Below are positions 9,265-64,000 of a stretch of 64,000 nucleotides of DNA, one piece after another. A program made the translations under genes and the position numbers. This stretch comes from a virus. The notes under the pieces are model-generated. The model made no database searches and was not told where the DNA came from. It was given only the letters and a program-made list of their open reading frames with translations. The stretch covers positions 81,871 through 145,870 of the IMG/VR virus record IMGVR_UViG_3300020201_000009. The stretch is one strand, 5' to 3'. The number at the start of each line of letters is the position of its first letter. The stretch's first letter is position 1.

Positions 9265-9521
9265 GAAGAGTTAAAATCACTAAAATCGCTACTATAAACG
9301 TAAACCCGAATGGTATTGATGATGCTTATTGGGCGATTGGGACGATTGTAGCGGAACCGACTGTGGGTAATCAATTCACGATCTATCGCGAATCAAATAT
9401 TCATAAGGTCGGTCACGGAGTTTTTAAAACCTCTCTAGTTGTCTTCGTAACGCCGACTGAAGATGGAAAAATTTTTATTAAAACAGAAAATGGTGAGTAT
9501 TCACTAGAAAACCATGCCTAG
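9261..9521 (+). CDS. hypothetical protein
   Basis: ATGA-coupled ORF. Confidence 0.6.
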   Translation: MRRVKITKIATINVNPNGIDDAYWAIGTIVAEPTVGNQFTIYRESNIHKVGHGVFKTSLVVFVTPTEDGKIFIKTENGEYSLENHA

Positions 9522-9981
9522 TAAACTTATTCTTTTATCGGGAATGCCGGCTTCGGGTAAAAGTACTTACGCCCTTAAGTTGTCCAAAGAAATTGGTTAT
9601 GTGATTGAATGTGCTGATACTTGGAGGGGAATTCTTTCTTCGACGGGTGACGAGGGAGATCAATCAAAAAACCTAGAAATCTTTTTTTCGATTTTACCAA
9701 AACAAATCAAAAAACATTTAAATAATGGAAATGGTGTCATCATTGATGTGACGGGTGTGAATAAGAGGACGAGAAAGATTTGGACTAAGTTCGCACAAGA
9801 TAGCGATACAAACATTGATTGTCATTGGTTTAGACCAAATATCGATCAATCTCTAGAATGGAATAAAAATAGAAAGAGGCAGGTTCCCGAGGATATCATT
9901 GTAAAATATGAATTGAATTATAGAGAGCCCGGTCTAGAGGAGGGTTTTAAAGAAATTGTAGAGGTTGATTTAAAGAAATAA
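9514..9981 (+). CDS. P-loop polynucleotide-kinase-like protein (AAA_33 type)
   Basis: GMPASGKST, D..R, IIDVT, RKRQVP lid. Confidence 0.85.
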   Translation: MPSKLILLSGMPASGKSTYALKLSKEIGYVIECADTWRGILSSTGDEGDQSKNLEIFFSILPKQIKKHLNNGNGVIIDVTGVNKRTRKIWTKFAQDSDTNIDCHWFRPNIDQSLEWNKNRKRQVPEDIIVKYELNYREPGLEEGFKEIVEVDLKK

Positions 9982-9983
9982 TA

Positions 9984-10832
9984 ATGCCAAGAAAATTACC
10001 ACAATTAATTACTGTAAAGTCAGACGCTGTTATTAAAATGTTTTTTGATTTTTATGTCCTAAATGAAATATGGTTTAAACTTGTAGCAAAAGATGTTATC
10101 TATGGATATAAAACCGATACAATTATTCCTTTCAGAAGAGAAAGCGTTTTAAATGAGGCGTTTTTAGAAATTTGTGAAAAATTAAAATTTTTAATGGTTA
10201 ATAGTTTGGAATGGAGCGTTCGTCGAGAATGCAGGCATTTTAACATATATGGCCCCTTGGGAACTCTAATAAGTCGTAAATCATTGAAAAAATTAATGAT
10301 AAAAGCGATTTCTCATAATGATCAAAAAGATATTAAAAAAATTAAAGAAGAAATAAATGCGAGAAAACAACATAATTCTTTTATTAAGAAAAATAAACCT
10401 TGGAGTAAATGCTCTCTAGAGGCAATTCGCGAGGCTTTCATGATGGAAGGGTGGGACTCTGAATTTGGCGGCGTTAAATGGGGAGAAGGTACAAATTATT
10501 TAATTAAGTTAAAAGAATCAAAATCAATTAAAGATGATATTTTTTATATCGATAGAATCTTCGACCTCCAACATAATAACGGATTTATTTTAAATAAGAC
10601 ATGTTTTGAGGCTTTGGAAAATTTATGTTTGATAGATCTGAATCCAAAAATTAAAACAATCCATAGTCACGTAGATGATTATTGTTTGCTAGATGCCAGA
10701 TTTGAACTATCTATAGAAATCCTATCTAGTTTTTGCTCGCCCAAAGTTAAAAAACTTTATCAATCCAATAAACATTTGTTACAAGGTAATTTTGAAAAGT
10801 ATTATATTGGAGAGAAAATTAATACTAGATGA
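9984..10832 (+). CDS. hypothetical protein (GG.KW and DLQHN.G motifs)
   Basis: 282-aa ORF inside the RNA-repair cluster. Confidence 0.7.
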   Translation: MPRKLPQLITVKSDAVIKMFFDFYVLNEIWFKLVAKDVIYGYKTDTIIPFRRESVLNEAFLEICEKLKFLMVNSLEWSVRRECRHFNIYGPLGTLISRKSLKKLMIKAISHNDQKDIKKIKEEINARKQHNSFIKKNKPWSKCSLEAIREAFMMEGWDSEFGGVKWGEGTNYLIKLKESKSIKDDIFYIDRIFDLQHNNGFILNKTCFEALENLCLIDLNPKIKTIHSHVDDYCLLDARFELSIEILSSFCSPKVKKLYQSNKHLLQGNFEKYYIGEKINTR

Positions 10833-11202
10833 AACGGGATTAAAAATAGTATTAGAAAAAGATTTTATAAAATACTATAAGTGGTTAGTGGAATCCCATA
10901 CGTATAAAACAATACAGCTTATTTGCCCTAAACACGGCGCGCATATTACAATCGTATCGAGCAAATTACATAAAGAGTTTGATAGGATAAAATTAAGTCA
11001 GTATAACAATCAGTTAGTCAGTTTTATATACAACCCAGAGGATATCAGAGTCGGCGGCAATGATTTTACCAATTATTGGTTGCCAGTTTTGTTTCCTCTT
11101 GGAGATCAGATTAAGATAGACCTAGGTATAGTCGAAAGTGACTTTCTAGGTTTTCATATTACAATAGCAAATAATAAAAATAAAGCAAGGTATAATCAAT
11201 GA
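10792..11202 (+). CDS. 2H phosphoesterase
   Basis: Two HxT motifs, GAHITI and GFHITI, about 70 aa apart. Confidence 0.75.
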   Translation: MKSIILERKLILDETGLKIVLEKDFIKYYKWLVESHTYKTIQLICPKHGAHITIVSSKLHKEFDRIKLSQYNNQLVSFIYNPEDIRVGGNDFTNYWLPVLFPLGDQIKIDLGIVESDFLGFHITIANNKNKARYNQ

Positions 11203-12566
11203 AGTTATCAGTTAAAGCAGAAAATACAAATTACGCAGCGGAAATATTCCTACTACCGAAACCATGTAAACACCCAAATGCCGATAAGCTTTCTTTAATT
11301 AATTTTAAAGGAAATGTAATCATTACCGGGATGAATTCCCGCGAGGGTGATTTATATGTTTACTTTCCTTTGGAAACCGCTATTAATAAAGAATATCTCT
11401 CATGGTCTAATTCTTTCAGTCACCCAGAATTAAATGCGAACACGAAAGTGCAGGGGTTCTTTAATGACGCTGGGAGAGTGAGGGCGGTAAAGTTGCGATC
11501 TCAACCTTCGATGGGTTATATTGTCCCACTTACCGATTTAATATTATGGTTGGATGCAAAGAAAATTAAATGTTCGGTTGAAGATTTTACGGTTGGTACA
11601 GAGTTTGATTATATTGACGAAAAGATTGTTTTGTGTGAAAAGTATGTCAATATTGAAGCTCTGCGTAAATTAGACAGTCTTACTAGAAATAATTCGAAAA
11701 AGGGAAAGGTAAAGAGAACGTCTAAGTTAGTTGACGATCAATTTAGGTTCCATATTGATACCGAACCTCTCAAGAAAAATATCCACCTTATTAAGCCCGA
11801 AGATAATATTACCGTATCGTATAAAATACACGGATCTTCAGCTGTCTACGCCCATATTCTAGTCAAACGTAAGCTGTCCACTCTTGATAAAATCGCCCGT
11901 TGGTTCGGGGTAAAAGTGGAAGAGACTAAATATGACTACGTATATTCAAGTCGCAAAGTTGTAAAAAATGAATATGAAGTGGAAGAAAAGCAAAACCTTC
12001 ATTATTACGATTCTAATATTTGGAGTCTTACTGGAAAAATTGTAAATGATTCTATCAAACCTGGAATTACCTTATATGGAGAATTGGTTGGGCAAACACC
12101 ATCTGGCAAATGGATTCAAAAGAATTACGACTACGGGACATTGCCGAATCAGCAAGAGTTTTATGTATATCGTATTTCAATTACAAATGCCAAAGGAGAT
12201 GTTTTTGAGTTCACAACAGAACAAGTCATCTCCTACTGCTCGATGCATGGTCTAAAAATGGTGCCGATTTTCTATCGCGGCAAAGCTAAAGATCTATTCC
12301 CAGAACTAAGTATAACAGAACATTGGAATCAGAATTTCTTAGATGCCTTACTAAAAAAATATACGGAGAAAGATTGTTATATGTGTACTAATAAGGTTCC
12401 AGAAGAGGGTATTGTTGTCGCAAAAGACGGCGTTACATTTACACCTTTTAAACTGAAATCTTTTCGTTTTCTTGAGGCCGAGTCGGTTCAACTGGACTCC
12501 GGGGAAATTGATATGGAGAGTGCAGAAAGCGTTGCGCCCGTAGCTGATCCAGAACCGGCAAAATAA
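11199..12566 (+). CDS. ATP-dependent RNA ligase (DRB0094/Rnl2-like)
   Basis: HPNADKL N-terminus; motifs I KIHG, III YGE, IIIa FYVY, IV EGIVV, V KLKS. Confidence 0.9.
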   Translation: MKLSVKAENTNYAAEIFLLPKPCKHPNADKLSLINFKGNVIITGMNSREGDLYVYFPLETAINKEYLSWSNSFSHPELNANTKVQGFFNDAGRVRAVKLRSQPSMGYIVPLTDLILWLDAKKIKCSVEDFTVGTEFDYIDEKIVLCEKYVNIEALRKLDSLTRNNSKKGKVKRTSKLVDDQFRFHIDTEPLKKNIHLIKPEDNITVSYKIHGSSAVYAHILVKRKLSTLDKIARWFGVKVEETKYDYVYSSRKVVKNEYEVEEKQNLHYYDSNIWSLTGKIVNDSIKPGITLYGELVGQTPSGKWIQKNYDYGTLPNQQEFYVYRISITNAKGDVFEFTTEQVISYCSMHGLKMVPIFYRGKAKDLFPELSITEHWNQNFLDALLKKYTEKDCYMCTNKVPEEGIVVAKDGVTFTPFKLKSFRFLEAESVQLDSGEIDMESAESVAPVADPEPAK

Positions 12567-16132: not shown

Positions 16133-16160
16133 TTGACCTTTGTCTCATTTTTACGATAAT
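16133..16160 (+). promoter_or_regulatory. sigma70-like promoter, leaderless
   Basis: TTGACC-16-GATAAT, 6 nt before ATG 16167. Confidence 0.6.
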
Positions 16161-16166
16161 TGGGTA

Positions 16167-17072
16167 ATGCCGAAGACGTTAATTCTTACAGACGTCCACC
16201 ATAGAATTGATTTGGTGGATGAAATCGTAGCTTTAGAAAAGGCCGATAAAGTAATTTGGACTGGCGATTATCAAGACCAATTTGAAGACACCCCGGCAGA
16301 TGCAAAAAAAACCGCAATCTGGTTAAAGGGAAAATTGGAAGACCCAAGAAACGTGATGATCATCGGAAATCATGATTGGACGTATATGTACCCGGATAAT
16401 AAACATGCTTATTGTTCCGGGTTTTCCGATGAAAAATCGGAGGCGATTAGAAAAATACTAAATAAGAATGACTTTGCGAAGCTGAAATCTTTCCATGTAG
16501 AAAATAATATTTTATTTTCCCATGCCGGTATCTCTAAGAGATTTTTAGATTTCGTGGTAAAAAAGGGGGATTGGGATGAAGATAAGGAATATTCTCTAGA
16601 AAATATCGTATCTTCTTTAGAAGACTGGACAGAGAAAGCAAGATTAGTATACCCAGTTGGTGGAAGCCACCCTCTATTTATGGCGGGCTGGGATCGCGGA
16701 GGCCGACAAGATTACGGCGGCATTATTTGGGAAGATTCTAGGACCCATTTTCCAATTAAAGGGTTGAAACAGATTTTTGGTCACACTCCCGGTAAAAAAC
16801 CTTATTATATCTTGATCGGGGACCATCATGGAAACCCCATACTTGTCGGACTGGATAAGTATGATGAAGAATTAAAATCGGGAATGCATAAGGGTAGTTT
16901 GGAGACTTGGGGTCTTTGTATTGACACCCATACGAATCATTATGCGATTATTGAAGATGAAATCGTGTTGACGGTTAAGACGGTTAAACAAAAGAGGGTA
17001 TTAGACACGGCTAAAATGGAAGATAAATATATATTAGTTGGAGTAGAAAATTTTTATAAAAGATTACTATAA
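16167..17072 (+). CDS. calcineurin-like metallophosphoesterase
   Basis: DVH, GDYQD, GNHD, SHAG, GHTP. Confidence 0.9.
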   Translation: MPKTLILTDVHHRIDLVDEIVALEKADKVIWTGDYQDQFEDTPADAKKTAIWLKGKLEDPRNVMIIGNHDWTYMYPDNKHAYCSGFSDEKSEAIRKILNKNDFAKLKSFHVENNILFSHAGISKRFLDFVVKKGDWDEDKEYSLENIVSSLEDWTEKARLVYPVGGSHPLFMAGWDRGGRQDYGGIIWEDSRTHFPIKGLKQIFGHTPGKKPYYILIGDHHGNPILVGLDKYDEELKSGMHKGSLETWGLCIDTHTNHYAIIEDEIVLTVKTVKQKRVLDTAKMEDKYILVGVENFYKRLL

Positions 17073-26653: not shown

Positions 26654-26670
26654 TTAGTGTATTATCCGGT

Positions 26671-30397: not shown

Positions 30398-30474
30398 GCG
30401 CGCATAGCTCAATTGGATAGAGCGACAGATTTCTACTCTGTAGGTTGAAGATTCGATTTCTTCTGCGCGTACCA
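30398..30474 (+). tRNA. tRNA-Arg(TCT)
   Basis: Cloverleaf; ACAGA-tt TCT ac-TCTGT; encoded CCA. Confidence 0.95.
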
Positions 30475-30524
30475 CTTTAAAATTTCAAGATGTGCGATTG
30501 GAAAATTAAATTAGAAAATGTTCA

Positions 30525-30734
30525 ATGTGGCAAAACAAGGGATTCACCATGATAGGGCTAATTGGAGTTTGGGCTGTTGTCGGATTATTATTTTTTTTCA
30601 CTTGCGGAGACCGGGTTTTTTTTAAAAACATGGGAGAGGTGAAATTCCTGTCTCTGGCTTTCTTGTTTGGCCCTTTTGTTTTTTTAGCATTTGTCTTCAT
30701 GACAATTGTTGATTGGCTGTTCAGAAAAATCTAA
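30525..30734 (+). CDS. small membrane protein
   Basis: Two hydrophobic segments. Confidence 0.55.
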   Translation: MWQNKGFTMIGLIGVWAVVGLLFFFTCGDRVFFKNMGEVKFLSLAFLFGPFVFLAFVFMTIVDWLFRKI

Positions 30735-30784
30735 TTTTAGATCCATATTTAAAATTTCTAGTGTAAAATCTATATTGTACTTTT

Positions 30785-30868
30785 GGCCCTATGGGGGAAT
30801 GTATACCCAATACTCTTAAAAAGTATCGCCCGTAAGGGATTGTCGGGTCGAACCGACTAGGGCTACCA
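30785..30868 (+). tRNA. tRNA-Leu(TAA)
   Basis: ATACT-ct TAA aa-AGTAT; long variable arm; CCA; 6-nt T-loop GTCGAA. Confidence 0.9.
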
Positions 30869-30888
30869 AACTATTATTCCCGCTTCAA

Positions 30889-31251
30889 ATGAAAAAAATC
30901 ACTCTCGCACTAATCCTTACGGATGTTCGCAAGGATAAATTGCTGCACAACGCGGGCGTACTCGAATCGTTTAAACGGTTGATTGAACCAGTCGAATATT
31001 TGCACGGCAATCTAAGAGAAGATCAAACGGTCAATAAGGTAATTTGTAATCTTAAAAAAGTTATAATGTCTGACGGAAAATATGAAATCCAAGCAATATT
31101 TACCCCCCATCAAAACGAAGGGGCTTGGTGTAATCGCGAAACAATTCTTGTTAGTACGGGTTCGGTGTGGGGGAAATTTGCAAATTATTTAGAGAGTTTG
31201 GGGTACAAAGGGCAACTTCCAAAACGATACACCAACGAAGTTTTAGTGTAA
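30889..31251 (+). CDS. hypothetical protein
   Basis: 120-aa ORF. Confidence 0.65.
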   Translation: MKKITLALILTDVRKDKLLHNAGVLESFKRLIEPVEYLHGNLREDQTVNKVICNLKKVIMSDGKYEIQAIFTPHQNEGAWCNRETILVSTGSVWGKFANYLESLGYKGQLPKRYTNEVLV

Positions 31252-31302
31252 ATAGATCTTTTGCGGAATATCGAGATTTGACAGGTATTAAACATATTTT
31301 CC

Positions 31303-31404
31303 CGCTCTGAACATTCTTTCTAGAATAATGTTAAAGTAATCGTCTATAACGCCTAAAAACGTTTTATAGGATTCCGTGTTTGTAAAACAACACCAGAGCG
31401 ACCA
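31303..31404 (+). ncRNA. tRNA-shaped RNA with CCA end (non-canonical)
   Basis: Perfect 7-bp CGCTCTG/CAGAGCG + A-CCA; T-like arm GTGTT/AACAC; extended anticodon-like stem. Confidence 0.6.
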
Positions 31405-31536
31405 CTTTCCTTTTCTATATTATATAAACACATATTGGTTACTATCTAAAAATAGTAATTCAGTCTTGCTGAGGGTTGTAGACCACCTCAATAAAAACGG
31501 TACATTAATTTTTAGGTTTAACAATTCAAATTCAAA

Positions 31537-32292
31537 ATGAAACTACACGAATCGCTAGCTGTCAACACAAGTATCGAAACACAAGCCGGTAAGGTAAGAT
31601 CCGAATTGGCTAATTCTTTCCAAAGCAAGGGACACCTCTTTACAGAGAAACTTGTTACATTCTTTCCCAATGCAGAGGGGCAACCGCCGATTATTGAATC
31701 CCAGAGTAAAATTCAGACCACGGTTCGAAATGAACTTGCTCTGATTACACCATTCCTTGTCAAGGCTATTGACTCTGCTTATCAGATTGCAGAGGCCAAT
31801 ACAGAGGCAAGGGCGGATATTATCTTAGAGGGGGAAACAACACCGATCCTTACCGGTATTCCCGCTACCTCTCTGCTCGAACTTGAGAAGAGACTTGCAG
31901 AAGTCGCAACATTGATTAATGCAATTTCTACAATCGACCCAGCGAAGGCTTTTGTAGCTGATAATGATAAAACGGCTGGATACTATAAAGCGGCCATTGT
32001 CAACAAGCCTCGTACCAAGAAAGAGAAAGTTGTACTTATTCGCTACGCGGCAACCGTTGAACATCCAGCGCAAACAGAGCTGATTGATAAAGATGTCGAA
32101 ATTGGCCGGACACAAGAACAAGAATGGTCCGGACTTATTTTGCCAGTTGAAAAGTCCCAATTGTTGGAGCGCGTCGAAATTATGCAGAGAGCAGTAAAGG
32201 CCGCTCGTTCCCGCGCCAATGAACAATTGGTTGATAGAGAAAAGAAGATTGGTAATACAATCATTGGTTACATCTTCCAAGTTAAAAAGTAA
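31537..32292 (+). CDS. uncharacterised helical protein of a widespread bacterial/phage family (recalled as DUF7873-like)
   Basis: KL....AV, AN..ARAD, P.T.LL.LEK.L, AT.EHPAQ, WSG, AVKAAR..AN. Confidence 0.8.
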   Translation: MKLHESLAVNTSIETQAGKVRSELANSFQSKGHLFTEKLVTFFPNAEGQPPIIESQSKIQTTVRNELALITPFLVKAIDSAYQIAEANTEARADIILEGETTPILTGIPATSLLELEKRLAEVATLINAISTIDPAKAFVADNDKTAGYYKAAIVNKPRTKKEKVVLIRYAATVEHPAQTELIDKDVEIGRTQEQEWSGLILPVEKSQLLERVEIMQRAVKAARSRANEQLVDREKKIGNTIIGYIFQVKK

Positions 32293-32295
32293 AAA

Positions 32296-32612
32296 TTTGG
32301 GTGTCTCGGCTTCACGCCGAGATTCTCAGGCTTAGGGTTATTGTTAGGTTTACTCATATAAAAGTTTAAGTTATTAACCCAAAAGTTCAAAACACATATA
32401 GAAGTTACCAGTAGACATATTAATATTTAAACCGAAAACAAAGATTCAATTTCTTTCGAAGGCGCCATTTTTGTATTTGTCAGTCAATGCTTTCGTCGTA
32501 TAGCGGTATTACGTCGGGATCAAGTTAAAAATTAATACGGGTTTGCTGATGAAGAGTTAAAAAAACGCTCTATATAATATCGGGGCTAGTCGCGTGCTAG
32601 CGGTCTAGCCCC
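32296..32612 (+). ncRNA. large structured RNA containing a circularly permuted tRNA domain (YrlA/Y-RNA-like)
   Basis: T-arm, acceptor 3' strand and GCCA precede the acceptor 5' strand and D-arm; long closing stem; 6-nt periodic repeats; 3' hairpin. Confidence 0.75.
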
Positions 32613-32626
32613 ACTTATTTTCAGTC

Positions 32627-32929
32627 ATGGAATATGAGGATTCAATAAAGTTAGATCATTTAGAGGCCAAATTAAAAATTGGCGCTTATTATTGCGCTTA
32701 TCAAAATAGAGCACTTCTTTTTATGGCCTATGTTGTAAGATTCACAGATAACATAATTGTCTTTAGAGAAGTATCCGTATTCGAAGGTCGTATTATTTGT
32801 GTGGACCGAAAGGTTTTCTTTAGTCTTGAATATTGTCCACGATTTGTCGGATACGGTATCAAAAATAAGTTGTTATCGTTTTTTAGCGTTTTTCGTGGTG
32901 ATCCGTTTCCCGTTTATAGTTTAACTTAA
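32627..32929 (+). CDS. hypothetical protein
   Basis: 100-aa ORF. Confidence 0.5.
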   Translation: MEYEDSIKLDHLEAKLKIGAYYCAYQNRALLFMAYVVRFTDNIIVFREVSVFEGRIICVDRKVFFSLEYCPRFVGYGIKNKLLSFFSVFRGDPFPVYSLT

Positions 32930-33062
32930 ATAGATCTTTATATATGGGTAAAACTAAACGTAAAGATGCTCATATCGAATCTGGCAGAAAGCCTTACGGT
33001 AAAATGCATCAGATTACAATTAAAGTTTCAAAATTGTTTTTCAGAATTTCTGAAAAAACCCA

Positions 33063-33110
33063 TTGCATTCCTCACCATTTTAGCTTATTATTCCTCTTAG
33101 TTCTTTGATA
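33063..33110 (+). promoter_or_regulatory. sigma70 promoter plus boxA-like element for the tRNA-Glu/Gln unit
   Basis: TTGCAT-17-TATTAT then GTTCTTTGATA. Confidence 0.55.
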
Positions 33111-33146
33111 GTTTAAATTAGTTTAAGTCTTATTTGTCAGTAATAT

Positions 33147-33221
33147 GGCCATGTCATCTAGTGGTTAAGATACACGGTTTTCATCCGTGGTACGAGAATT
33201 CGATTTTCTCCATGGCTACCA
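33147..33221 (+). tRNA. tRNA-Glu(TTC)
   Basis: CACGG-tt TTC at-CCGTG; CCA. Confidence 0.95.
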
Positions 33222-33283
33222 ATTTTTTCTAGATAACAAAATCTGATTATCATATAAATAAAAAATGTACTAATCGACGAAAA

Positions 33284-33312
33284 GAAAGCCCCGTGCTTTA
33301 GCTAGGGGATGA
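33284..33312 (+). mobile_element. orphan IS200/IS605-type end hairpin
   Basis: GAAAGCCCCGTGCTTTAGCTAGGGGATGA; no tnpA/tnpB in the window. Confidence 0.55.
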
Positions 33313-33348
33313 TCAAGGATTAAACAAATTAAAAATTAGAGTTTTTGT

Positions 33349-33422
33349 TGGAGCGTGGTGTAACGGTAGCACAGGAGACTTTGAATCTCTTAGAGAAATT
33401 TCGATTATTTCCGCTCCTGCCA
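33349..33422 (+). tRNA. tRNA-Gln(TTG)
   Basis: GGAGA-ct TTG aa-TCTCT; unpaired 1:72; G73; CCA. Confidence 0.95.
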
Positions 33423-33605
33423 ATTTTTTCTGTTATAATTGGTTATTTTGATAAGTTTCCAAAGTGGAAAAAAGACCACCCAATCGACGGTAAAGTCATC
33501 CTTTTGTAACAGTAAATCTTTTGCAGTTAAAGCCGGAATTTCTTTTCGAAAAGAAAGGAAAAAAGGGGTTGACCCGCAGGGGTATGGGGGATTCCCTTAT
33601 GGGGT

Positions 33606-33827
33606 ATGACGCAAACGCCCGAGTTTTTTTCGGATGGATATATAAATCAAGCGGGTTCGGTTTTGATAGAATTTTCGAGGGATAGGGGTCATTCCCCCTT
33701 AGTCTATTGGAGGATTTTCTCGTTCGACTATACTACTCAATATTTTGAGCCCCAATCGGCACAGTATATAACCGAAGATGCTTATTTGAGTCTACGTGAT
33801 AGTCTTATCATGCAAGGCTTTTATTAA
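33606..33827 (+). CDS. hypothetical protein
   Basis: ORF after a TTGACC-containing region. Confidence 0.55.
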   Translation: MTQTPEFFSDGYINQAGSVLIEFSRDRGHSPLVYWRIFSFDYTTQYFEPQSAQYITEDAYLSLRDSLIMQGFY

Positions 33828-34153
33828 CAATAAAACATGAGTGAACTTTTTAGGGAAAAATTTTGTAAACTATTCTGGGAGGCTGTAAATAGCGGGTTTA
33901 GCTGTAATGACGCCAGAGATTATGCCTCCCTAGAATTGACCGGAAAACTTTATCACAAAACAACTAATGAGATCTAATAAAATTTTTATAGCAATCAAGG
34001 GTATCCTTGCCTTTTGTATTATTTATATTTCCATTGCCTTTGTCGTTTTTCAATTTAGAAATCCAAAAGCAAATGATACGACATTTTTTACACACTTTTC
34101 GGATGTGGTCAAATATAACAAGTTAGAGAAATTCAACTAAAAAAACTATTCTT

Positions 34154-34669
34154 ATGAGCGACAAAAAAATAATCGGATTTGGTGATTTGGGAAGAGACAA
34201 GGTAACGGGCGTACAGGGTGTTGTAGTATCCTTTACCAGATATCTTTATAATTGTGACAGAGTTGGGCTTCAACCAATTCCAAAGACGAACAGCGAAAAG
34301 CCAGTGGAAGAATTAACGTTTGACACTTATCAAGTTGATGTTGTCAAGAAGGGTAAGGTCAAATTTGGAAACGTTAATAACGAAATAATGGTTGCGGGGC
34401 TTGGGGATCTTGTTAAGGATAATGTTACGCTGAGAACTGGAATCGTACTTGGCATTTGCCGTCAAGCATACGGCTCTCCCATCTTACTTGTTCAGCCGCA
34501 ACAGTTGGATAAGGATGGTAGGGTGCGCGGTATCTTGTATTTTAACCACGCTCAAGTTACCGTGGTACAAAGCAAAAAGATTGTAGTCGAAAATATGCCA
34601 GAGAAACCGGTTGTTGATGGTAAAAAGACCACCGGCGGGCCAATGCCGACTGTTAAACGGCCTTACTAG
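34154..34669 (+). CDS. hypothetical protein with tandem SH3/KOW-like repeats
   Basis: GDLGRDKVTG..G / GDLVKDNVT...G, each followed by QP. Confidence 0.7.
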   Translation: MSDKKIIGFGDLGRDKVTGVQGVVVSFTRYLYNCDRVGLQPIPKTNSEKPVEELTFDTYQVDVVKKGKVKFGNVNNEIMVAGLGDLVKDNVTLRTGIVLGICRQAYGSPILLVQPQQLDKDGRVRGILYFNHAQVTVVQSKKIVVENMPEKPVVDGKKTTGGPMPTVKRPY

Positions 34670-34710
34670 GCTATAATAAATTTTGTAATAGAAATATTAC
34701 GTAAGTTCTT

Positions 34711-34785
34711 GGGGTCGTAGCTCAACGGTAGAGCAGTTCCCTTTTAAGGAATTGGTTGTGGTTTCAAATACCACCGACCCCACCA
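34711..34785 (+). tRNA. tRNA-Lys(TTT)
   Basis: GTTCC-ct TTT aa-GGAAT; CCA. Confidence 0.95.
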
Positions 34786-34789
34786 TTTT

Positions 34790-34885
34790 ACACTATAACA
34801 TTCTGTTTTGGATTTAAACATCTGTTTGTTGTGAGTGGATGTCTAGGTCATAATCCAATCGTCCTTATATAAGACGAGTAGTGTA
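34790..34885 (+). ncRNA. tRNA-shaped RNA with the same architecture as 31303-31404
   Basis: ACACTAT/GTAGTGT stem, AACATTC hairpin, long stem, T-like arm TCGTC/GACGA; no encoded CCA. Confidence 0.45.
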
Positions 34886-35056
34886 TTACTTTACTAAATA
34901 AAATAAACCCAAACAAAATGGGCGATAACCATATAACACCTGAAGAGATGGGGGTAATTCTAATACCAAATTCAGACATTTCAAAGAAAGTGGTAAAAGA
35001 AATGGAGAAATTGTCCGAGGTTATTGATCAATTGCCACCCAATTCAAAAGTAAAAA

Positions 35057-35494
35057 ATGAAAATTAAAAATCTAATCTTTGGATTACTCCTTACTTGCGC
35101 CGCTTCTTATGGCCAAACCAAATATCCAATTAGTCTTATTTGGAATGGTAATAATCCAGCAGGGAGCGTTGAATATTTTATTGAACAAAAAAGCGGATCT
35201 AGTGAATGGGCGGAAACGCCTAATGCTAAAACCCAACTGGAAACTTTTACACTTCAACTTGTTCCGGGTGGATACATTTTTCGGGTTAAAGCTAGGCGAA
35301 CTGTAGAGGGAAACGTATTAACCTCAGCGCCATCAAATGAATTGGTACACCTTCATGGGAAACCTCTTGATCCATCGACATTGAAGATCACTATGAATTT
35401 GATTATTAGAGAAGACGGTTCTATTTATAATAGTAAATTTAATCGTCCGATTAATTTTGCGAAACTTCGGCGCGAAAATAAGGGAACGAGTTAA
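35057..35494 (+). CDS. signal peptide + fibronectin type III domain protein
   Basis: Signal peptide; L.W, Y, L.PG.Y.FRV.A, S.PSNE. Confidence 0.7.
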   Translation: MKIKNLIFGLLLTCAASYGQTKYPISLIWNGNNPAGSVEYFIEQKSGSSEWAETPNAKTQLETFTLQLVPGGYIFRVKARRTVEGNVLTSAPSNELVHLHGKPLDPSTLKITMNLIIREDGSIYNSKFNRPINFAKLRRENKGTS

Positions 35495-35840
35495 TGCCTA
35501 TAATCAATTACCTATGAAAGATTTCGAAGGAGAATACAAAAAGAAAATATTGGAACATAAAAACTTCCCTAGGACTCCTCGCGGGCCGGATGGTAAGTTT
35601 TTTATTCCCAATGACGAACTATTTGTAGTCGGCGCATATCTTCAAACGGCCTATCTCAAAGGTTTCTTTACCAATAATGAAGGTAAGCAAATGTATTACT
35701 TTTTTTACATCGACAAAGAAAGAAATTTGGCTAGACCCAGCGAAAACAATTTAATAATTGGGACCAAGTTTGTACAGGAAATTGAAAAATCCAATTTGTC
35801 AATTAAACATGAACTTATTGAAACCAGTTGTTTATCATAA
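35457..35840 (+). CDS. hypothetical protein
   Basis: ORF tiling. Confidence 0.55.
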   Translation: MRNFGAKIRERVNAYNQLPMKDFEGEYKKKILEHKNFPRTPRGPDGKFFIPNDELFVVGAYLQTAYLKGFFTNNEGKQMYYFFYIDKERNLARPSENNLIIGTKFVQEIEKSNLSIKHELIETSCLS

Positions 35841-35988
35841 TTCTATTAGGAATCCAGTAAAATATTCTTTGTGGTCCGATAGCGGAGTTTATTATCCCGG
35901 CGTGACGGTGGTTTTGTCCGTTATTCTCGCTAAGATTATTGTTTCTATTCCTCAATTTATGATTTATTTTTGGGGTTTATAAATTTAT

Positions 35989-36067
35989 GGTCCTGTAGTT
36001 AAATGTAGCTAATAACGGGCTCTTTATAAGGGCTTATTGACAGAGGCTCCGCTGTCCGGGACTACCA
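35989..36067 (+). tRNA. tRNA-Ile(TAT) with aberrant D and T loops
   Basis: GGTCCTG/CGGGACT; GGCTC-tt TAT aa-GGGCT; T-loop AGGCTCCG; CCA. Confidence 0.8.
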
Positions 36068-60590: not shown

Positions 60591-60642
60591 CAAGGTAAAT
60601 AGCAAATTAAAATACAAAAACGAAAAACCAATTAGTAAAAAT

Positions 60643-60711
60643 AAAATTGTAAATCTAAAAACGAAAATTGTAAATCTAAAAAATAAAATTGTAAATCTAA
60701 AAAATAAAATT
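60643..60711 (+). repeat. 21-bp tandem repeat, about 3.3 copies
   Basis: AAAATTGTAAATCTAAAAA(CG/AT). Confidence 0.85.
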
Positions 60712-60807
60712 AATAATAAAAATGTGGCTGGCGGCGGGAAACATTTAAATAATAACAAATCTAACTGCCTATCAACATTTTACTACAGATCAAATCCAAT
60801 AAAACAT

Positions 60808-63506: not shown

Positions 63507-63977
63507 TCAGAGTTTCGGGTCAAATTTGACCAAACCCGCTTTCATGTCGTACTTGAGCGAGTGGATTCCGTCCTGTGTCCATCCCGCTGCGGTCGAAATC
63601 GTTCTCGTCGCGATCCGGTCCGCCGAGCGCGGACCAACCAACGCGATCAACGCGTCGTAGGCAGCATCTGCCTTTGCCGAAGATTCGGCGGTGGTTGCCG
63701 TCGGAGCCCAAAGGTGATTTATGTAGGCCGCTAGGGCGAGAGAGACCGCCGTCGCGAACCCGGGTGTCCCCGTGGGAAGTAGCACGCCGAAGTCTCGTGC
63801 GAGCGATTGAATGTGCGCCATCGCAGGGTCCCCCAGCGTCTCGTACGCTCGGGCAATTGCGAGCCCATGGGCCATACTGGCGATGTTCTCTATCTCTAGG
63901 AACTGCGCGACTGAAAGATTCAGTCCCACGTTGAACTGCGCGTTATTTGCGCAGTTTAAGGGAAGTGTAGTATTCAT
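63507..63977 (-). CDS. hypothetical protein; the only convincing minus-strand gene
   Basis: 156-aa Ala-rich ORF followed by its own terminator. Confidence 0.7.
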   Translation of the reverse strand: MNTTLPLNCANNAQFNVGLNLSVAQFLEIENIASMAHGLAIARAYETLGDPAMAHIQSLARDFGVLLPTGTPGFATAVSLALAAYINHLWAPTATTAESSAKADAAYDALIALVGPRSADRIATRTISTAAGWTQDGIHSLKYDMKAGLVKFDPKL

Positions 63978-64000
63978 ATAGAGGCGGGTTAGGTTAGAGT

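Follow-up and report, generated by a model that had tools for sequence, protein, structure and literature searches.

A predicted tRNA mimic, apparently restricted to its lineage, in the tRNA cluster of an IMG/VR phage

Introduction

The tRNA cluster of phage T4 holds two RNAs that are not tRNAs, RNAC (species 1) and RNAD (species 2), for which no function has been assigned (PMC3014915, PMC9697503). Their genes are closely packed, rnaD lying 1 nt after tRNA-Arg and rnaC 6 nt after rnaD. Here we analyse a comparable locus in a 64,000-nt stretch of DNA from an uncultured phage, referred to as the window, which corresponds to bases 81871-145870 of the 145,870-nt IMG/VR virus record IMGVR_UViG_3300020201_000009 (CheckV completeness 92%). 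Two tRNA-shaped elements had been noticed in the window, and the original prediction took them for a family of phage tRNA mimics or decoys. As in T4, they are placed in a phage tRNA cluster, on the tRNA strand and next to a tRNA gene: element 1 lies between a non-canonical tRNA-Leu (here tRNA-Leu*) and tRNA-Glu, and element 2 begins, as had been stated, 4 nt after tRNA-Lys, the tRNA ending at 34785 and the element starting at 34790. From the sequence, element 1 is confirmed as a well-formed and apparently lineage-restricted tRNA mimic; for a family of two and for a decoy role the tests made gave no support.

The likeness to RNAC extends to the paired ends, to the T arm beside the 3′ strand and to the long extra helices in between. 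RNAC differs in its length of 139 nt and in its canonical GGTTCGAATCC T arm, whereas element 1 has an 8-nt loop that is not of the T-psi-C type, an encoded ACCA and a cloverleaf-like four-way junction. The comparison of folds was visual, and no sequence relationship between element 1 and either of the T4 RNAs is evident. With canonical tRNAs (RF00005) element 1 has in common the 7-bp acceptor on a 5-bp T stem, the discriminator A, the CCA, a 4-bp D stem with an 11-nt loop and the style of leader and trailer; it differs from them in having A8 instead of U8, no G18G19, no U33-containing 7-nt anticodon loop on a 5-bp stem, an 8-nt T loop and a 7-nt spacing of D arm and central arm. A minihelix made of acceptor and T stems, with a 3′ RCCA, is what bacterial RNase P and the enzymes that recognise CCA need, and this module is intact in element 1. 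Minihelices of this kind are experimental model substrates or viral 3′ ends, whereas element 1 would represent an internal gene of a tRNA operon.

Results

Anatomy and fold of element 1

31303 to 31404, plus strand: element 1, a 102-nt tRNA-shaped RNA gene (from the sequence, the hand structure and the pattern scan)

The features that had been described for element 1 (acceptor stem, AACATTCT, hairpin in the D position, bulged arm, T-like arm and A-CCA end) are all present in the sequence. The acceptor stem comprises 7 bp, all Watson-Crick (CGCTCTG/CAGAGCG, 31303-31309/31394-31400). Directly 3′ of its 5′ strand stands AACATTCT, with A8 and A9, and the D-like arm consists of 4 bp (CATT/AATG, 31312-31315/31327-31330) with an 11-nt loop, the alternative pairing being AACATT/AATGTT. 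A 7-nt linker separates the D-like arm from the long arm (31338-31373), whose 12 bp are interrupted by two 2-nt bulges on opposite strands, in the order 4 bp, 2-nt bulge, 4 bp, 2-nt bulge on the opposite strand, 4 bp and 8-nt loop (CCTAAAAA). Two nt further on, the T-like arm, with 5 bp (GTGTT/AACAC, 31376-31380/31389-31393) and an 8-nt loop (TGTAAAAC), abuts the acceptor 3′ strand, and the 3′ end is formed by a discriminator A and an encoded CCA (31401-31404).

In the hand structure (-16.5 kcal/mol) 28 of 28 pairs are Watson-Crick, with no G-U pair. The minimum free energy (MFE) is -22 kcal/mol and the fold z is -2.83, only 2 of 200 shuffles being equally good, so that for this element the expectation of folding better than shuffled controls was borne out. 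The acceptor closure persists when element 1 is folded in a 286-nt context. The element sits in a 285-nt intergenic gap between tRNA-Leu* and tRNA-Glu, on the tRNA strand, and shares an ACCA-CTTT trailer and a T-rich leader with tRNA-Arg and with a second non-canonical tRNA, tRNA-Ile*; all three read ACCACTTT.

Element 1 compared with chance

The pattern sought throughout the genome was a 7-bp closure over a span of 60-140 nt, with a 5-bp hairpin directly against the 3′ strand, followed by NCCA. The plus strand gave nine distinct matches, against 3.55 per strand in shuffled genomes, and six of the nine fell in a 5.7-kb cluster at 30.4-36.1 kb, where about 0.14 would be expected by chance. These six are tRNA-Arg, tRNA-Glu, tRNA-Lys, element 1 and the matches at 30785-30868 and 35989-36067, the last three lying beyond the tRNAs called at default settings, and all of them finish in ACCA with a T-rich trailer. 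Since the fold z of the true tRNAs of this genome ranges from -0.89 to -3.50, a range in which element 1 (-2.83) is included, folding alone does not discriminate. It is the excess of the acceptor/T-arm/ACCA pattern in the cluster, together with the common ACCA and T-rich trailer, that argues against a chance structure, and we conclude that element 1 is a real, non-random structure.

The two other matches beyond the default calls are likely to be decoding tRNAs.

30785 to 30868, plus strand: tRNA-Leu(UAA), tRNA-Leu* (pattern scan; ARAGORN at -ps80)
35989 to 36067, plus strand: tRNA-Ile(UAU), tRNA-Ile* (pattern scan; ARAGORN in mitochondrial mode, anticodon tat)

tRNA-Leu* carries the long variable arm of class II, a 6-nt T loop and ACCA, and its MFE fold is a clean cloverleaf (z -2.07). 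tRNA-Ile* is a cloverleaf with the anticodon loop TTTATAA, an 8-nt T loop (AGGCTCCG), no GG in the D loop and ACCA followed by CTTT. Both are missed by ARAGORN and Rfam at default settings because of their odd T loops, which matters for the counting of phage tRNAs.

Element 1 and the tRNA family

At its ends element 1 is built as a tRNA, with 7 Watson-Crick pairs in the acceptor stem, a discriminator and CCA, read together as ACCA. In the place of an anticodon arm with a 5-bp stem, a 7-nt loop, U33 and a purine at 37, it has the 12-bp bulged arm with an 8-nt loop. The elbow of a tRNA (U8, G18G19 and a 7-nt T-psi-C loop) is found in neither element, both having A8, no GG in the D position and T-like loops of 8 and 9 nt, respectively. 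Rfam holds no family matching element 1 even at E<=10, and RF00005, for which membership was set at a covariance-model score of at least 29 bits, matches neither element at E<=10 with lax filters. Likewise, ARAGORN calls neither of them, whether thresholds are relaxed, introns are allowed or the mitochondrial mode is chosen. tmRNA and YrlA (RF02553) gave no Rfam match, and pair 3-70 of element 1 is C-G, as opposed to the G3-U70 of tmRNA. Element 1 does not have the make-up of an archaeal-type tRNA precursor either, its bulges being of 2 nt and not of 3, and the phage record lacks the splicing-endonuclease domain PF01974. Matched neither by RF00005 nor by ARAGORN and devoid of U8, of GG, of a 7-nt anticodon loop and of a 7-nt T-psi-C loop, element 1 keeps the ends of a tRNA but does not belong to the tRNA family.

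Element 2 and the TAGTGTA motif

34711 to 34785, plus strand: tRNA-Lys(UUU) (ARAGORN; Rfam 72.9 bits)
34790 to 34885, plus strand: element 2, a candidate only (from the sequence; the MFE fold keeps the closure)
34879 to 34888, plus strand: TAGTGTATTA, a copy of TAGTGTAWWA, 32 nt before the ATG at 34918, which forms the 3′ strand of element 2
31244 to 31253, plus strand: TAGTGTAAAT, a copy of TAGTGTAWWA, 59 nt upstream of element 1

The features ascribed to element 2 can likewise be read in the sequence. The closure (ACACTAT/GTAGTGT, 34790-34796/34878-34884) comprises 6 Watson-Crick pairs and 1 G-T pair, AACATTCT stands at 34797-34804 directly 3′ of the closure 5′ strand, a long hairpin of about 17 bp with a 5-nt loop occupies approximately 34808-34858, and the T-like arm (34859-34877), with 5 bp (TCGTC/GACGA) and a 9-nt loop (CTTATATAA), abuts the closure. 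The hairpin in the D position is literally present as AACA/TGTT, but with 4 bp and a 3-nt loop it is missing from the MFE fold. Element 2 has no encoded CCA, ATTA following instead, whereas CCA is present in all six tRNAs and in element 1.

The fold of element 2 is weak, with a z of -1.09, or -0.66 with flanks, and does not stand out from shuffles, yet it is not outside the range of true tRNAs. Without the CCA requirement the pattern has 238 matches in the genome, which is about 0.8 per kb per strand, and the shape of element 2 therefore occurs at background frequency. A reading of element 2 on the minus strand (z -3.28) was rejected, as there are no genes on that strand there and the better z reflects base composition.

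In the genome TAGTGTA has 14 plus-strand copies. Five of them precede, by 11-35 nt, the ATG of an open reading frame (ORF) with 40 aa or more, the background being 5.8%. The consensus of the sites is TAGTGTAWWA, with copies in the window at 26655, 30759, 31244, 34879 and 62644, and one TAGTGTA copy is found 26 nt before tRNA-Leu*. TAGTGTAWWA, which is unlike the sigma-70 and the Bacteroidota consensus, is a candidate phage promoter element; a scan for promoters of the sigma-70 type gave nothing above shuffles, and k-mer enrichment in intergenic DNA revealed no dominant promoter motif. The most intergenic-enriched 8-mer of the genome is GTAAATCT.

The original prediction had come with the caveat that the 3′ strand of element 2 overlaps a possible TAGTGTA promoter, and the recurrence of the motif 11-35 nt before start codons proved this caveat justified. 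Because a promoter-like motif found upstream of genes covers that strand, the supposed acceptor 3′ strand with its discriminator is explained. Most likely, element 2 is a read-through or leader structure between tRNA-Lys and the gene at 34918, with a promoter-like 3′ strand; that it is a discrete RNA related to element 1 is doubtful. Element 2 is indistinguishable from chance plus a promoter-like motif, and it is unproven.

Relationship between elements 1 and 2

The window was searched with R1, a covariance model derived from element 1, filters being off. The model recovered element 1 itself with 133 bits and the region of element 2 with 10.4 bits (E 2.7) in a shifted register, and its best non-self matches were tRNA-Lys (17 bits, E 0.057), tRNA-Glu and tRNA-Leu*, by way of acceptor, T arm and ACCA. 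The local alignment of the two elements consists of the AACATTCT 8-mer alone, and 648 of 1000 shuffles did as well; aligned globally, the two gave p = 0.07. The identical offset of AACATTCT in both elements is the sole link that is not trivial: 0.0086 sharers were expected among 228 pattern matches, a suggestive but post hoc comparison with a p of about 0.01. Three 8-mers only are common to two of the 228 matches right after the 5′ strand, namely TAGCTCAA in tRNA-Arg and tRNA-Lys, which are a true pair, AACATTCT in elements 1 and 2, and one in a chance pair of coding DNA. Within the window, AACATTCT is non-coding only at elements 1 and 2.

The position of AACATTCT right after a 7-nt 5′ strand in both elements would be accounted for if they formed one family of tRNA mimics or decoys, with a conserved single-stranded AACAUUCU beside covarying stems and with the CCA of element 2 added after cleavage by RNase Z. 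Both are intergenic, lie in the tRNA cluster on the coding strand and have similar trailers (ACCACTTTCC versus ATTACTTTAC), which points in the same direction. Such a family is nevertheless not very likely: R1 misses element 2, the alignments are non-significant, the shape of element 2 occurs at chance frequency and its z values are low, its arms are unlike those of element 1 in number and length, and it is without CCA, the ATTA that follows being part of the TAGTGTAWWA consensus. A family of two, with a recurrent motif as the 3′ strand of one member, is thus not upheld. The designation of tRNA mimic holds for element 1, which combines a 7+5 bp acceptor/T helix and ACCA with the lack of an anticodon loop and of a canonical elbow; for element 2 it is unproven.

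Search for relatives and the DUF7873 neighbourhood

31537 to 32292, plus strand: gene for a DUF7873 protein (Pfam PF25283, E 4.8e-57), 133 nt downstream of element 1

The search covered 151 related loci and 42 virus records and brought up no relative of either element. Searched with R1, 71 viral DUF7873 loci gave no relative of element 1 but one 20-bit match on the wrong strand, 80 metagenome DUF7873 loci gave no relative but a 16-bit match (in locus L220) with AACATTCTT and a hairpin, with neither closure nor CCA, and no relative was found in the 42 complete or partial related virus records. The covariance-model search of viral sequences that had been suggested for the family of element 1 thus came back empty over these loci and records. 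An exact 20-mer of element 1 had no match in the close-relative search, and exact-peptide scans with the DUF7873 protein and its 171-aa neighbour found no close relatives in viral contigs or metagenomes.

The nearest DNA polymerase in IMG/VR shows 49% identity. The best DUF7873 match, at 61% identity, lacks an element upstream, and a DUF7873 homologue (P0002) on a 36.7-kb contig is 80% identical. With GenBank phages only tRNAs are in common, their DUF7873 being about 30% identical. Judged by these comparisons, the phage is isolated and element 1 appears to be lineage-restricted.

DUF7873 has 269 homologues, which are often encoded inside phage tRNA clusters and sometimes have an ordinary tRNA just upstream. 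Since in most relatives the gap upstream of DUF7873 measures only 30-90 nt, element 1 is not a conserved part of a DUF7873 module; AACATTC was not tied to a particular position relative to DUF7873 genes. Downstream of the DUF7873 gene is a 334-nt gap (32293-32626), which holds, 104 nt from the gene, a structured 226-nt RNA stretch (32396-32621, z -2.58), in which a tRNA 3′ half (canonical TTCAATT T arm and CGAAGGC-G-CCA) is placed before a 5′ half, and which ends in a terminator-like GC-rich hairpin and a T run. Its tRNA-like module, like that of YrlA and Y RNA-like tRNA mimics, is circularly permuted and closes in the opposite sense, whereas element 1 has the ordinary 5′/3′ acceptor topology. 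In other phages, DUF7873 genes are commonly followed by gaps of 300-700 nt. The TAGTGTAWWA copy at 31244 is a possible promoter element of a unit made of element 1, DUF7873 and the structured RNA, a role that remains putative.

In another phage (L020/L029, 4831-4945) we observed a 113-nt multi-branched structure of -42.7 kcal/mol, with a closing stem of 7-8 bp and an abutting hairpin, which ends 8 nt before the DUF7873 gene; it has no CCA and is a single case. Other DUF7873 phages carry tRNA-Ile(UAU) genes of 92-93 nt with a long variable arm (L015 2201-2292 and L021 2949-3041), and L020 (6580-6652) has a tRNA with the anticodon UUA, of the ochre suppressor type.

Setting in the phage genome

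The phage has a GC content of about 36%, its plus strand carries nearly all genes, and the proteins of the window include a family-B-type DNA polymerase, a helicase and NAMPT. Twelve DNA runs from microbial mats and freshwater contain the stretch wholly or partly, and no run recorded as RNA does; in the four runs compared the fragments are identical in sequence and offer no variation for a test of pairing. ARAGORN and Rfam at default settings call four tRNAs in 30.4-34.8 kb, Arg(UCU), Glu(UUC), Gln(UUG) and Lys(UUU). In all, 30398-36067 contains six tRNAs (Arg UCU, Leu UAA, Glu UUC, Gln UUG, Lys UUU and Ile UAU), all of which have U34 and read A-ending codons. A G53-C61 pair closing the T loop is near-universal in tRNAs; at this place the four canonical tRNAs have A-U or U-A.

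9514-9981: P-loop kinase (AAA_33), adjoining an unassigned 282-aa ORF that is followed by the RNA ligase
11199-12566: RNA ligase, in the same row as the P-loop kinase

The row of kinase, 282-aa ORF and RNA ligase (window 9514-12566) may constitute an RNA repair set like T4 Pnkp/Rnl, and a calcineurin-like phosphoesterase is encoded at 16140-17072. A 21-nt tandem repeat in 3.6 copies (unit AAAAATAAAATTGTAAATCTA) occupies 60637-60711, just 5′ of the gene starting at 60724. At the end of the contig (62001-64000) the GC content is 50%, versus about 35% before, and there is a minus-strand ORF at 63507-63998; the jump in GC could be due to foreign DNA, a host junction or an assembly chimera. The 13-mer TAAATAGATCTTT, which follows two stop codons, is no more than chance would give in a window of this size.

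Discussion

The balance of the evidence tips slightly towards element 1 being the gene for a non-decoding, tRNA-shaped small RNA that is matured by the enzymes of tRNA ends, like T4 RNAC and RNAD. Element 1 would be transcribed with the plus-strand tRNA cluster, possibly as the 5′ part of a unit that continues with DUF7873, the structured RNA and the terminator. The 12-bp coaxial helix of acceptor and T stems, together with the 3′ ACCA, would make the transcript a substrate for host RNase P, with a 5′ cut before C31303, and tRNA 3′-end trimming would halt at the encoded CCA, so that processing would both free a stable RNA of about 102 nt and separate the flanking mRNAs. Decoding by this RNA would be impossible, as a closed, doubly bulged 12-bp helix replaces the anticodon arm and the D/T elbow is non-canonical, and whatever its role it would act as a mimic. 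We infer that it is cut out like a tRNA and accumulates without decoding, because the module used by RNase P and the CCA enzymes is kept while the parts read by the ribosome and by most synthetases are lost.

Some observations weigh against this interpretation. The MFE structure of element 1 has a low frequency in its ensemble (0.003), and a C at +1 combined with a C at -1, as in element 1, is a non-preferred context for bacterial RNase P. The loci and records searched yielded no homologue of element 1 whose changes could support its pairs by covariation. Moreover, given AACATTCT at the same offset and a similar trailer (A-YYA-CTTT), element 2 could be a true diverged paralogue.

The weak resemblance to tRNA-Lys might hint at a different origin. 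tRNA-Lys is, within the genome, the closest relative of the T arm and 3′ half of element 1 (17 bits, E 0.057; local alignment p about 0.085), oddness increases from the four canonical tRNAs through tRNA-Leu* and tRNA-Ile* to element 1 and then element 2, and no orthologues were found in the searched loci and records, as would fit with element 1 being a decaying duplicate of a Lys-like or Ile-like tRNA that has no function of its own, and element 2 a more decayed one. Decay should, however, break pairs, and in a genome of 36% GC all 28 are Watson-Crick with no G-U; since they are intact, a pseudogene is unlikely. Furthermore, the ACCA and the trailer of element 1 are preserved, and the likeness to tRNA-Lys is non-significant without ACCA (p 0.085). 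Paralogy of element 1 with tRNA-Ile*, tRNA-Leu* or tRNA-Lys had also been sought by alignment, and was dropped as suggestive at best (global z up to 3, local alignments non-significant).

A more specific role as a decoy is improbable. Here element 1, processed and provided with CCA in the manner of a tRNA, would be an anticodon-masked mimic in an arms race over tRNAs that binds and titrates a host tRNA-targeting defence enzyme or a tRNA-binding sensor, or else its AAAAA loop would pair with the UUUU anticodon loop of tRNA-Lys, and element 2 would be a second copy lacking CCA. A decoy or sponge role is compatible with what the phage encodes, since it has a kinase and RNA-ligase pair and a tRNA set that is entirely U34.

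The two elements might also work at the level of DNA, as operator-like palindromes accompanied by a TAGTGTA promoter element, the tRNA shapes being incidental. Palindromes can be read in the sequence of element 1 (AACATT-N11-AATGTT) and of element 2 (AACA-N3-TGTT and AAACA-N2-TGTTT), and TAGTGTA, besides its enrichment ahead of start codons, stands 26 nt before tRNA-Leu* and 59 nt before element 1. We regard this as quite improbable, as the acceptor, T arm, ACCA and trailer of element 1, which match those of the neighbouring tRNAs, are left unexplained; the scan for sigma-70-type promoters was not above shuffles, and no regulator was identified.

Highly improbable is a precursor tRNA in which a 21-nt insert, bulge-helix-bulge-like, masks the anticodon loop of element 1 and is excised, the ends being sealed by the phage RNA ligase: the long arm does resemble a bulge-helix-bulge, with 21 nt deleted a 7-nt loop containing U33, UAU and A37 is left, and the phage encodes a P-loop kinase (9514-9981) and an RNA ligase (11199-12566), but the bulges are of 2 nt and not of 3, the phage record has no splicing-endonuclease domain, after the deletion the D and anticodon stems would stand 7 nt apart instead of 1 with a variable loop of 2 nt, and an intact tRNA-Ile(UAU) is already present at 35989.

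Element 1 keeps the acceptor/T helix, the CCA and the trailer and has lost the anticodon loop and the elbow, which suggests that its partners would be the enzymes of tRNA ends and not the ribosome. Non-decoding look-alikes of tRNAs have been known in the tRNA clusters of phages since RNAC and RNAD of T4, and each independent, well-formed example shows which parts of a tRNA are kept.

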